From Escherichia coli (GTDB lineage Bacteria > Pseudomonadota > Gammaproteobacteria > Enterobacterales > Enterobacteriaceae), in assembly GCF_003334315.1 (NCBI RefSeq), contig NZ_QOWR01000034.1: a DNA stretch of 49,379 nt; one strand, 5' to 3'. A model generated the notes under the pieces. That model had not been told where the DNA came from, made no database searches, and worked only from the letters and a program-made list of their open reading frames with translations. The position numbers and the translations under genes are program-made. Below are positions 3,928 through 7,509 of the stretch, in pieces; positions within the stretch are counted from its first letter, which is position 1, and each line of letters starts with the position of its first letter.

Positions 3928-4899
3928 TTACGGCTTGCGCGCAATCAGCACCGCGCGTTTAGGTGCCGGATAACCTTCCACCGTTTTACCCGGATCATGT
4001 GGGTCGAGGAAATCGGCCAGCGATTCGGTAACCATCCATTCGGTGCGTCGCTGCTCTTCTGTGGTGGTAACGCTCACATCCGCAATGCGGATATCTACAA
4101 AACCACACTTCTTCAGCCAGTTTTTCAGCGCCAGCACGGAAGGGATGAAATAGACATTACGCATTTGCGCGTAACGATCGCCTGGTACCAGCACCGTGTT
4201 CTCATCACCATCAATAACCAGCGTTTCCAGCACCAGTTCACCTTCATTGACCAGTTGATCTTTCAACTGCCATAGATGCTCCAGCGGTGAACGGCGATGG
4301 TAAAGCACGCCCATCGAAAAGACGGTATCAAAGGCTTTCAGTGCCGGAAGTTGTTCAATACCTAACGGTAACAAATGCGCGCGCTGATCATTACCCAGTA
4401 GTTTACGCACCGCTTCAAACTGGCACAGAAACAGTTGCGTAGGGTCGATCCCCACCGCGAGGTGCGCGCCTGCGCCAATCATGCGCCACATGTGATAACC
4501 GCTGCCGCAGCCGACATCCAGAATGGTGCGTCCGGTTAAATCAGAAAGATGGGGCAGAACACGATCCCATTTCCAGTCGGAACGCCATTCGGTATCGATG
4601 TTGACGCCATACAGTGAGAACGGCCCTTTGCGCCACGGCATCAGGTTGCGCATCAGCGTTTCAATGCGTTTAATTTGCCCTGCGCTCAGTGGCTCTTCGC
4701 TTTCTGCCGTAACGCTATGCAATAAATCAAGACGATACGGTTTAATTTCAGGTAGAAACTCCACCGCATTTGACCACTGCTTAAACAACCCGTGCTGCTG
4801 CTCGCGCTGCCAGTTAGCAATCAGCGCGGGCAGCGTTTCGAGCCAGTGTGAAAGATGATTTTTGGCAATCAGAGAATAAAAGTTACCAAAGTCGATCAT
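3928..4899 (-). CDS. cmoB: tRNA U34 carboxymethyltransferase (uses carboxy-SAM)
   Basis: 323-aa ORF with SAM-methyltransferase motif [11 protein letters not shown]; start overlaps the cmoA stop (ATGA at 4896-4899). Confidence 0.93.
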
Positions 4900-5639
4900 G
4901 CAGCGTCCTCTGCTTTTAATGCCACCAGTGAACCAAAGTTAAAGCACTGGAACCACAGCTCACTATGCTCAAAACCGGCGTTATGCAGGCGTGCTTTATG
5001 GGTTTCCACGGAATCGGTCAGCATCACGTTTTCCAGCATGCTGCGCTTCTGGCTGATCTCCAGTTCGCTGTAACCGTTGGCACGTTTAAAGTCGTGGTGC
5101 ATGTTGAACAACAGTTCACCAACTTTGGCATCTTCGAAACTGAATTTTTCCGAAAGCACCAGCGCGCCGCCGGGGTTCAGCCCTTGATAAATTTTATCCA
5201 GTAACGCCTGGCGCTCGGAAGGTTCCAGGAATTGCAGGGTAAAATTCAGCACCACCATCGATGCGTTTTCAATGGCGATATCGCGAATATCACCTTCAAT
5301 GACGTCTACTGGCGTAGGGGCTTTATAGGCGTCAATATGACGACGGCAGCGTTCAATCATCGCCGGGGAGTTGTCGATGGCAATAATTTTGCAATTATCA
5401 TGATGAATGTTGCGACGCACCGAGAGCGTCGCCGCGCCCAGAGAACAACCCAGATCGTAAACCTGCGTACCAGGTTGAACGAAGCGCTCGGCTAACATAC
5501 CAATCATGGAAATAATATTGGAATAGCCGGGTACGGAACGCTGGATCATATCCGGGAAGACTTCAGCTACCCGTTCATCAAAGGTCCAGTCGCCCAGTCT
5601 GGCGATAGGGGCAGAAAATAGCGTGTCGCGGTGAGACAT
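4896..5639 (-). CDS. cmoA: Carboxy-S-adenosyl-L-methionine synthase
   Basis: 247-aa ORF with SAM-binding motif VYDLGCSLG; matches recalled CmoA length and sequence. Confidence 0.93.
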
Positions 5640-5679
5640 AACGTAAAAATCCGGGAAAAAGAAAGTGGCGTATTGTGCG

Positions 5680-6075
5680 CTAACGCAGGGAGAAAACCAA
5701 CTCCCAGGGCATATACCAAAGATTCGCCAGCACCATCAGCAACAGCGCACACCAGGTGGCGCTCATGCCGGAACGTCGCCAGCGGAACAGACGGTGATGA
5801 AAACCGTAATAATGCATCAGACGACCAGCAAGCAAAACGATGCCGCAAATATGCACCATCCAGGTTTCTGCGCCATTCATTTCCATAAACAGCATCAGCA
5901 CAATCGCGATGGGAATATATTCCACCGCGTTACCATGAATGCGAATAGCGCTTTGCAGTTCGCTAAAACCGCCGTCGCCATAGGCAACGCGGTACTGCAT
6001 TCGCAGGCGAACGACATCAAAAGAGAACTTCATTAATAACAACGCACTTAAAACGGCGTACAGCGCGCTTACCAT
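5680..6075 (-). CDS. yecN: Small inner-membrane protein, MAPEG-like (YecN)
   Basis: Track ORF is 184 aa; start trimmed to ATG 6075 (MVSALYAV...), giving the 131 aa recalled for YecN. Strongly hydrophobic. Confidence 0.8.
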
Positions 6076-6127
6076 ACAAACTCCCTTTAAAATGGCCGAT
6101 GGCACCTGTCTATGATAGGTGGCAAAT

Positions 6128-6946
6128 TCAGAAAAGAGAAGATTGCTGTGGAATAGCCGGAACTGCTCCGATCTCTGGAAGCGTTTTACGTAAGTCTTCC
6201 CACAGGGTATGTACCAGTTCCGGTGCCTGGGCAATGTCTGGCGTATGTAAAAAAAGATAAGGCGTAGTGGTCTGATGCCACTGCGCTAATTTTTGTAACC
6301 AGACCTGAAATAATTCCCGGTTTTGCGTCATATCATCACTACCGATAAAACGGATCAGCGGATTTGTCGCCGTCAGTACAGCATGTACCGGAACTTTAGG
6401 TTTTTTTCGTTGAGCGTCGCGAATAGCTTCACTGTGTGGACGTGCTGCATGAACCGGGCGGCTGTCTAAAATCACCCGATTAACGCCGCGCTGATGTAAA
6501 CCGCGATTAAGCGTTTGTTCCTCTTCTCCTTTGGCGAAAAACTGTGGATGGCGGACTTCCACGCCATAATTAAATTCGCCAGGAAGAGAATCGAGAAAAT
6601 GCCAAAGCGCAGGCAGCTCCCGTGGGCCGAATGTGGCAGGCAGTTGCAGCCAGTATTGCCCAATGCGCGGAGCCAACGGTGACATGCGGGTCAAAAATTC
6701 AGTCACTAAATCATCGCAATGCCGTAATGCTGCCTGATGCGAAATGGTCGCCGGAAACTTAAAACAGAAGCGGAAGTCATCTGTGGTCTGCTCACGCCAG
6801 CGCAGGACAACCTCGGGTTTCGGCAGGGCGTAAAGCGTGGTGTTGCCCTCCACGCAGTTAAAGTGGCGGGCATACTCTTCAAGGCTGGTGATCCCCAACC
6901 GCACCCATTTAGGATGCGACCATTGCGGTAGACCGATGTAAATCAT
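6128..6946 (-). CDS. yecE: DUF72-family protein of unknown function (YecE)
   Basis: 272-aa ORF; start overlaps the yecD stop (ATGA at 6943-6946). Confidence 0.88.
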
Positions 6947-7509
6947 AACGCGTTGAGGATCTCTTCCACGCTACGCACACGGGCGATGCGCGGGTAGATA
7001 TGGTTGATACTGTTATTGTGCTGCTCGGCGCTGGCGGCACTACAGGCGTCTTCGGCAATCACCAGATTAAAGCCAAGTTCCCAGGCATTGCGGGCGGTGG
7101 ATTCAACACCGATATTGGTCGAGATCCCACATAACACTATTGTATCGATACCTCGGCGGCGTAATTGCAACTCCAGATCCGTACCGTAAAACGCACCCCA
7201 TTGACGTTTGATGATTTCGATATCGCTGTCGGTTGCACCTAATGCAGCAGGATGTTGCCACCAATTTTCGGGCAACACTTTAGCCGGTGAGGGCGCATCG
7301 ACCGGCTGTTTTAATGCTTCAGCGTAATCGGCAGACCAGCCAACGCGCACCAGAAACACGGGCTGACCGCTGGCGCGAAATTTCGCCGCCAGCTTCCCGG
7401 CGCGATTAACTACCTCATCGGCAGTATGTGGACCACCGGCAAAAGGTAAGATGCCTTCTTGTAAATCGATCACCACCAGCGCAGTGGTTTTAGCATTAAG
7501 TTCAAGCAT
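6943..7509 (-). CDS. yecD: Isochorismatase-family cysteine hydrolase (YecD)
   Basis: Start trimmed to ATG 7509 (MLELNAK...), giving 188 aa. Isochorismatase-like motifs ALVVIDLQ and [20 protein letters not shown]. Confidence 0.85.

Follow-up and report, generated by a model that had tools for sequence, protein, structure and literature searches.

Do the five closely packed genes yecD, yecE, yecN, cmoA and cmoB of Escherichia coli form one operon that serves one pathway? The question is raised by a 49,379-nt stretch of E. coli DNA (NCBI RefSeq assembly GCF_003334315.1, contig NZ_QOWR01000034.1), which is called the window at its full length and whose positions are used throughout. CmoA and CmoB act in the carboxy-S-adenosylmethionine (carboxy-SAM) pathway to 5-carboxymethoxyuridine (cmo5U) in tRNA. 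A first-pass annotation had read the five genes as one translationally coupled transcription unit and had proposed that the products of the three upstream genes share this pathway. We hold with good confidence that the cluster is instead a stack of three independent modules, yecD-yecE, yecN and cmoA-cmoB, arranged head to tail without terminators, and not a dedicated five-gene pathway operon.

Gene models and junctions

From the open reading frame (ORF) listing and a direct reading of the strand, all five genes were placed on the minus strand. The first, yecD (7509-6943), encodes an isochorismatase-fold protein (PDB 1J2R). It is followed by yecE (6946-6128) for a DUF72 TIM-barrel protein, yecN (6075-5680, ATG at 6075) for a MAPEG inner-membrane protein, cmoA (5639-4896) for the carboxy-SAM synthase and cmoB (4899-3928) for the tRNA U34 carboxymethyltransferase. 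The yecE start overlaps the yecD stop in an ATGA (6943-6946), and the cmoB start overlaps the cmoA stop in the same way (ATGA, 4896-4899). Read on the minus strand, the four junctions measure -4, 52, 40 and -4 nt, an operon-like packing, and every coordinate of the first-pass annotation was reproduced. Identical gene models are found in K-12 MG1655 (b1867-b1871), where the cluster is flanked by divergent aspS and convergent torZ. Several RefSeq E. coli strains match the 4.2-kb stretch at 100% identity, and yecE is 100% identical to MG1655 yecE. The identities of YecD, YecE, CmoA and CmoB are backed by NCBIfam equivalog models, and YecN is assigned to MAPEG by PDB matches and RefSeq annotation, which agrees with the earlier labels for CmoA and CmoB, the DUF72 protein YecE and the MAPEG-like protein YecN.

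The ATGA 4-base overlap is the commonest junction type within bacterial operons. In 25 kb of K-12 sequence around the locus, three co-directional pairs show a 4-nt overlap, namely znuC/znuB, yecD/yecE and cmoA/cmoB. The packing pattern is real yet unremarkable. The locus itself is standard annotation, and both the locus and its transcription starts are already in the literature.

cmoA and yecN have their own promoters

Transcription starts were taken from the supplementary table of Kim et al. 2012 (PMC3415461; coordinates NC_000913.2). The cmoA start (1950699, A5666 in the window) lies 27 nt before the ATG and has a count value of 18, the highest in the cluster, where "count" is our own interpretation of an unlabelled column. 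The yecN start (1950262, G6103 in the window) lies 28 nt upstream of the gene and has a value of 5. For yecE the table lists no start, and for cmoB only two-count starts.

The cmoA promoter (5666-5700, minus strand) consists of the -35 hexamer TTGGTT (5700-5695), a 17-nt spacer, the -10 hexamer CACAAT (5677-5672) and a GC-rich discriminator, with the start at A5666. The yecN stop TAG (5682-5680) lies within the spacer, and transcription starts 6 nt past the -10 hexamer. The 17-nt spacing and a mapped start in the 5-8 nt range are those of a sigma-70 promoter, while the -35 hexamer matches the consensus at 3 of 6 positions. A consensus scan of the window that asked for at least 4 of 6 matches in each hexamer called no promoter in any junction and missed both real promoters, that of cmoA because its -35 hexamer matches at 3 positions only.

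Conservation of the cmoA promoter was assessed in 17 Enterobacteriaceae sequences (16 fetched loci and the window). Two blocks, GAGTTGGTTTTCTC and ACGCA[AC]AATA, are invariant in all of them. The invariance covers four consecutive synonymous yecN positions, and the codons between the blocks vary freely. Such a pattern marks a promoter that is overlapped by coding sequence. In the window, the invariant last yecN codons and the spacer correspond to 5695-5710 and 5670-5682 and double as the -35 element and spacer of cmoA. The locus offers a clean small example of a promoter that is conserved across orders and overlapped by the end of the upstream gene, where it constrains synonymous sites of yecN.

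The element is not restricted to Enterobacteriaceae. In nearly every lineage a -10 hexamer (TAGAAT, TAAAAT, TATAAT or CACAAT) is found 30-110 nt upstream of the cmoA ATG, often with TGn in front of it and with a GC-rich discriminator (ACGCGCC) and a T-run behind it. Within 120 nt upstream of cmoA, the 13-mer TA[AG]AATACGC[GC]CC was matched in 27 of 71 loci when up to 2 mismatches were allowed and in 45 of 71 when up to 3 were allowed, against a background of 0.8% and 4.7%, respectively, in 20,000 random 120-nt windows from the same loci. The motif is kept whichever gene stands upstream, be it yecN, yecE, an insert or aspS. In Vibrio the -10 hexamer is paired with a near-consensus -35 hexamer (ATGACA-17-TAAAAT). 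The GC-rich discriminator suggests growth-rate or stringent control of cmoAB, as in many translation genes.

The yecN promoter (6103-6140, minus strand) combines a weak -35 hexamer, TTCTCT (6140-6135), which lies in the last yecE codons, with the -10 hexamer TATCAT (6117-6112) and the start G6103. Upstream of yecN in Enterobacterales we found (TA)GCGACAG-17-TAT[CG]AT, mostly 35-37 nt before the ATG. TAT[CG]AT is present in 36 of 45 yecN loci, compared with 2.9% of background windows, and an independent promoter scanner found GCGACA-17-TATGAT/TATCAT in Serratia and Yersinia. Of this promoter E. coli keeps the -10 hexamer, and the last yecE codons have taken the place of the -35 hexamer, in keeping with its weaker start signal.

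Upstream of yecD lies the divergent aspS/yecD control region (7510-7818, no strand assigned), which holds the aspS start at ~7724 on the plus strand (PMC3415461). A constitutive RpoD site was reported in the aspS<>yecD spacer by systematic evolution of ligands by exponential enrichment, and the operon was named 'yecDEN' (Shimada et al. 2014, PMC3946193). For yecD the start-site table gives a single start, 462 nt ahead of the gene, which falls within aspS on the strand opposite to aspS (PMC3415461). The same table also holds an antisense start inside yecD (~7150, plus strand), assigned to aspS with a 669-nt leader; the yecD start inside aspS, with its 462-nt leader, falls at ~7971 (minus strand). 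These two starts suggest overlapping divergent transcription of aspS and yecD. The supplements of SMRT-Cappable-seq held no entry for these genes, and those of Cappable-seq gave no match.

A weak sigma-54 site has been reported by chromatin immunoprecipitation on microarrays inside Salmonella yecN, ~70 nt upstream of cmoA. The E. coli equivalent (~5712-5729, minus strand) has GG instead of GC at the -12 element and was rejected as a candidate.

Probable read-through and translational coupling

A consensus scan of the window found no terminator-like hairpin in any junction, and the total number of hits was within shuffle expectation. Between yecN and cmoA of Serratia and Yersinia the scanner likewise called no intrinsic terminator, though GC-rich hairpins are visible there. 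An Rfam scan at a permissive threshold returned no leader or riboswitch in any junction. Its matches were derived from repetitive extragenic palindromic (REP) sequences only and lie downstream of cmoB. These REP repeats, or bacterial interspersed mosaic elements (BIME), occupy 3836-3926 (no strand assigned) in the convergent gap between cmoB and torZ, with Rfam ES036 (3836-3878) above its gathering score and naRNA4 (3882-3926) below threshold. Because of them the 4.2-kb query has a median of 35 matching places per E. coli genome.

By eye, the yecE start has no well-placed Shine-Dalgarno sequence, and it is therefore plausible that its translation depends on termination at yecD. Translation of yecE is probably coupled to that of yecD.

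Protein data bear on the transcription of cmoAB. In the Keio yecN deletion, CmoA and CmoB were changed by log2 -1.24 and log2 -1.17, respectively (Mateus et al. 2021, PMC8547470, Data Set S1). The EcoCyc v21.1 units used in that study join yecN, cmoA and cmoB as one. The Keio scar keeps only the last 21 nt of yecN, that is, the sequence from the -35 hexamer onward. Lost read-through or a damaged upstream promoter context could both have caused the ~2.3-fold drop, and the two cannot be separated because the scar starts exactly at the -35 hexamer. Taken with the lack of terminators, the drop makes read-through from upstream into cmoAB likely. Given CmoA and CmoB levels that are ~2.3-fold down, lowered cmo5U synthesis may lie behind phenotypes of the Keio yecN mutant.

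The first-pass annotation was right in part about the transcription unit. Tight packing, the lack of terminators, likely read-through and a plausible coupling of yecE to yecD support it; the mapped starts and the conserved promoters at yecN and cmoA do not. Promoters or terminators between the genes had been named as evidence that would count against a single unit, and of these the independent promoters are present (starts at 6103 and 5666) and the terminators are not.

The same data could be explained by regulation alone, with the packing serving to let the yecD and yecN promoters lift cmoAB above its basal promoter under certain conditions and with no biochemical link between the products. 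The equal 2.3-fold decrease of CmoA and CmoB in the yecN deletion and the lack of terminators between the genes agree with this explanation, as do the listing of yecN among the genes of a fluoride-stress transcriptome and the sigma-54 site in Salmonella yecN. It is a possible explanation, if on balance a somewhat doubtful one. It largely overlaps with the three-module arrangement, condition-specific data were not found in the literature searched, and, the compact arrangement being confined to Enterobacteriaceae, any such regulation would be lineage-specific.

The yec genes are variable neighbours of cmoAB

If the five genes served one pathway, they might be expected to stay together. We compared 80 cmoB-centred loci, one per species, from Enterobacterales, Orbales, Pasteurellales, Aeromonadales, Vibrionales and Alteromonadales. 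Homologues were identified by tblastn with AspS, YecD, YecE, YecN, CmoA, CmoB and TorZ only. Enough upstream sequence was available in 76 of the 80 loci; ~10 kb on each side of cmoB was covered, so that the results describe linkage at the locus.

The stable neighbour of cmoAB is the divergent aspS and not the yec genes. All three yec genes stand between aspS and cmoA in 30 of the 76 loci (Enterobacteriaceae, Serratia, Rahnella, Yersinia, Erwinia and a few others). Seven loci hold yecE-yecN (Hafnia, Edwardsiella, Pectobacterium, Brenneria, Pantoea stewartii), eight hold yecN only (Budvicia, Photorhabdus, Xenorhabdus, Proteus, Arsenophonus, Mangrovibacter) and thirteen yecE only, at 45-52% identity (Aeromonas, Vibrio, Photobacterium, Grimontia, Salinivibrio). 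None of the three is present in the remaining 18 (Rosenbergiella, Gilliamella, Aliivibrio, Shewanella, Psychromonas, Pasteurellaceae and others). Linkage of yecD to cmoAB is seen in part of Enterobacterales only and that of yecN in Enterobacterales only, while linkage of yecE reaches Vibrionales and Aeromonadales, with repeated losses. Among the matches listed for YecD, only enterobacterial proteins occur, with identities of at least 77%. Linkage beyond close relatives, which a shared role had been expected to show, is thus lacking for yecD and yecN, and all three genes are missing from 18 of the 76 loci; yecE is the gene that reaches further.

The tight spacing is restricted still further. 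Compact junctions of -4, ~52 and ~40 nt are confined to Enterobacteriaceae, and in Serratia, Rahnella, Yersinia and Erwinia all yec junctions measure 47-409 nt. The 4-nt overlap of cmoA and cmoB is kept throughout Enterobacterales. Tight spacing and ATGA overlaps in one species therefore do not define a pathway operon; the packing seen here is a lineage-specific compaction.

Outside Enterobacteriaceae the slot between aspS and cmoA sometimes carries inserts, which measure 0.9-2.3 kb for the first three kinds named here. The yecN and cmoA genes are separated by an oppositely oriented AroP/PheP-like permease gene in Hafnia (L033, 7552-8910) and Edwardsiella (L034, 7601-8962; positions are those of the respective locus). 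This places an aromatic permease beside a prephenate-using enzyme, which may be a coincidence. Further inserts are a PtuA/PtuB-like anti-phage pair between yecD and yecE of Acerihabitans (L047, 5724-7804), a RelE/StbE-type toxin-antitoxin pair between yecN and cmoA of Photorhabdus (L028, 8496-8988) and an EAL-domain gene between aspS and yecE of Pectobacterium (L036, 6350-7564). The slot behaves as an insertion hot spot. In Yersinia aldovae yecD is cut to ~110 codons (L029, 6908-7246) and appears to be decaying; yecE, yecN and cmoAB are intact.

In a marine gamma-proteobacterium with a CmoB of 43% identity, ruvA-ruvC-yebC-aspS is divergent from cmoA-cmoB across a 145-nt spacer, without yec genes. 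The contexts of distant CmoB proteins showed no isochorismatase, DUF72 or MAPEG neighbours, with several contigs being short upstream. The deep synteny of ruvA-ruvC-yebC-aspS with cmoA-cmoB was also visible in marine metagenome contigs (L087, L088) and in many of the loci L003-L082.

In some E. coli genomes a prophage in yecE separates yecD from the other genes

The locus varies within E. coli as well. Of 5,426 complete genomes, 4,639 carry the 4.2-kb region in one piece, and in ~15% of the 5,426 the locus is interrupted by a lambdoid prophage in yecE. A yecE query gave 6,240 matching pieces in the 5,426 genomes, with breaks near the 5' end. From the break points of split yecE matches, an approximate prophage attachment core was placed at 6851-6871 (no strand assigned), in the 5' part of yecE. 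Published work describes yecE as an insertion site of Shiga toxin (Stx) phages. In strain FRIK1989 (L091, 7001-9068) the integrase gene overlaps a rebuilt DUF72 ORF of 265 residues, which is followed by yecN-cmoA-cmoB. The N-terminus of this rebuilt ORF comes from the phage side. With a prophage in yecE in about one in seven genomes, yecD and its promoter are therefore separated from the remaining genes in these strains.

YecD, YecE and YecN in relation to cmo5U synthesis

YecD had been labelled a cysteine hydrolase. An Asp-Lys-Cys triad was not found. At the nucleophile position YecD has Gly (TNIGVEST), where 3KL2 (TNCCVEST) and a nicotinamidase (TDICV) have Cys; the Burkholderia orthologue likewise has Gly. 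Among the full-length orthologues from the fetched loci, D15, K101 and the Gly at the nucleophile position are invariant, and Gly is present in E. coli YecD and in all of them. E. coli YecD has a single Cys nearby, and orthologues carry Gly, Ala or Thr in its place. In a 2025 study, which assayed amides and lactams only, YecD was described as an Asp-Lys-Gly protein, the wild type had no amidase or lactamase activity and a G145C variant gained both (PMC12553813). The cysteine hydrolase label does not hold, and the annotation habit behind it needs correction for YecD.

The fold had also been taken to indicate a chorismate-type substrate. The true isochorismatases EntB and PhzD (EC 3.3.2.1) do resemble YecD in fold and in having an Asp-Lys-Gly arrangement, in which Gly stands where cysteine hydrolases have the nucleophilic Cys; the YecD Gly aligns with that of EntB. 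Nevertheless, their similarity to YecD is the weakest among the characterised family. YecD is nearest in sequence to RutB, BiuH, N-carbamoylsarcosine amidase and PncA/nicotinamidases and farthest from EntB, VibB and PhzD, with E-values of 1e-11 to 1e-18 against amidohydrolases and ~1e-6 to 1e-7 against true isochorismatases. In 25 kb of K-12 context no isochorismate synthase, chorismate, siderophore or phenazine gene was found; the fetched loci had been screened for the seven proteins named above only. The substrate argument is thus left without specific support. Judged by its sequence, YecD looks like an amidohydrolase-type scaffold that has lost its nucleophile and stands outside the isochorismatase clade.

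In an alignment with MGST2 and LTC4S, YecN retains the glutathione-site motif of MAPEG proteins as R45-x3-N49-x2-E52-Y53-x-P55, together with a matching G84-R85, and the motif residues are invariant in 44 orthologues. With MGST2 and LTC4 synthase it shares the small size, the membrane nature, R-x3-N-x2-E-Y/F-x-P and the G-R of the next helix, at an identity of only ~20-25% (E ~1e-4). An E. coli MAPEG protein is described as conjugating 1-chloro-2,4-dinitrobenzene with glutathione (Bresell 2005, as cited in PMC6798054), and we infer that this protein is YecN. YecN is most likely a glutathione-dependent MAPEG membrane transferase.

YecE matches the DUF72 profile and has the TIM-barrel fold. It is most likely a metal-dependent DUF72 TIM-barrel enzyme of the apurinic/apyrimidinic (AP) endonuclease-2/xylose-isomerase-like group. 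The DUF72 structures 1VPY (Enterococcus EF0366) and 1VPQ (Thermotoga TM1631) are 21-24% identical to it. Neither Enterococcus nor Thermotoga is known to make cmo5U.

Could yecE alone be tied to cmoAB, with yecN and yecD as later, unrelated insertions? YecE would then be a nucleic-acid-directed TIM-barrel enzyme that acts on tRNA or on a by-product of U34 modification. It is encoded co-directionally upstream of cmoA in Enterobacterales, Vibrionaceae and Aeromonas, with 45-52% identity, and the DUF72 fold is related to AP endonucleases and ultraviolet-damage endonuclease (PMC11791011). We nevertheless regard this as very unlikely. The gaps between yecE and cmoA measure 102-601 nt in Vibrio and Aeromonas and contain the cmoA promoter. 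Morganellaceae, Budviciaceae, Orbales, Rosenbergiella, Aliivibrio, Shewanella and Psychromonas lack yecE at the locus and keep cmoAB, and many E. coli carry prophage sequence in place of the 5' part of yecE. The origin of the two DUF72 structures, in organisms that are not known as cmo5U makers, also argues against it.

In the published pathway, TrhP and TrhO form 5-hydroxyuridine, CmoA supplies carboxy-SAM, CmoB forms cmo5U and CmoM its methyl ester (PMC6599085; PMC12300143). It is complete without YecD, YecE or YecN activities and needs no further enzyme. The roles of the three proteins most likely lie outside cmo5U synthesis.

The proposal of one coupled five-gene unit, in which YecD, YecE and YecN join or tune the prephenate/carboxy-SAM/cmo5U pathway, for example by action of YecD on a chorismate-derived compound, is very improbable in our judgement. 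It would give roles to three orphan E. coli genes and add a step or control point to the wobble-uridine pathway. The tight packing without terminators, the polarity of the yecN deletion towards CmoA and CmoB, the Asp-Lys-Gly arrangement that YecD has in common with the true isochorismatase EntB and the AroP-like permease next to cmoA in Hafnia and Edwardsiella are all in its favour. They are outweighed by the mapped internal starts with their conserved promoters, by linkage of yecD in part of Enterobacterales only, by 46 of 76 loci that lack at least one yec gene yet have cmoAB, and by the prophage that, in ~15% of the complete E. coli genomes, comes between yecD and the other genes. In sequence, moreover, YecD sits nearest RutB, BiuH, N-carbamoylsarcosine amidase and PncA, with EntB and PhzD the most distant. 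The K-12 context contains no isochorismate or chorismate gene, and the pathway is complete without the yec genes (PMC6599085). The shared pathway role is not borne out; the yec genes are variable neighbours of cmoAB.

There is only a slight chance that one of yecD, yecE and yecN is truly tied to U34 modification. Should this be so, yecE, which has stayed upstream of cmoAB in three orders, would for that reason be the better candidate, and its DUF72 barrel would act on tRNA or on a by-product of the modification. Alternatively, YecD could cleave a chorismate-derived compound by hydrolysis and thereby adjust how much prephenate reaches CmoA and TrhP, an idea that leans on an invariant Asp-Lys-Gly site like that of vinyl-ether hydrolases.

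Three modules with probable nested transcripts

The arrangement that we favour comprises three modules, yecD-yecE, yecN and cmoA-cmoB. In this arrangement cmoAB would be read mainly from its own ancestral sigma-70 promoter, presumably older than the yec genes, whose -10 hexamer and GC-rich discriminator lie just past the yecN stop and whose -35 hexamer and spacer, in Enterobacteriaceae, fall within the last yecN codons. Transcription of yecN starts at its own promoter in the yecE-yecN spacer, and yecD-yecE would be read from the region divergent from aspS, with yecE probably coupled to yecD in translation. With no terminator between the modules, transcripts from upstream would extend into cmoAB and raise its expression. 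An own start for cmoAB, an own start for yecN and nothing to stop upstream transcription together predict nested transcripts. The ancestral order was probably aspS divergent from cmoAB, with the slot filled successively by yecE, yecN and yecD, probably in that order. The yec genes would have been repeatedly lost or displaced, and cmoAB and its promoter retained.

Several points weigh against this arrangement. The adjacency of yecE and cmoAB over three orders, with 13 loci that hold yecE only and 37 that hold it beside other yec genes, outlasts what is usual for random gene order and could reflect a selective tie such as co-expression. Since CmoA and CmoB fall ~2.3-fold when yecN is deleted, full expression of cmoAB must depend on sequence within yecN or ahead of it. 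The relative strength of the starts depends on how the unlabelled column is interpreted. No RNA-seq, Northern or long-read evidence that shows or excludes a full-length five-gene transcript was located, and the searchable literature yielded no tRNA nucleoside profiles of yecD, yecE or yecN mutants.

Comparison with known systems

The yecD-yecE-yecN-cmoA-cmoB cluster of E. coli K-12 MG1655 has the same genes, lengths and junctions, and the window shows no difference of substance from it. Complex operons such as E. coli rpsU-dnaG-rpoD resemble the arrangement proposed here in their co-directional genes, short spacers, internal promoters and functionally unrelated products. They differ in that no processing or attenuation signals were identified in yecDEN-cmoAB, where a five-gene transcript is only predicted. 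The two-cistron cmoA-cmoB operon of gamma-proteobacteria (Kim et al. 2015, PMC4482062) shares the adjacency of the two genes, the 4-nt overlap and an own promoter and start. In contrast to it, the promoter in Enterobacteriaceae is overlapped by the 3' end of yecN, and transcription from upstream can enter cmoAB.

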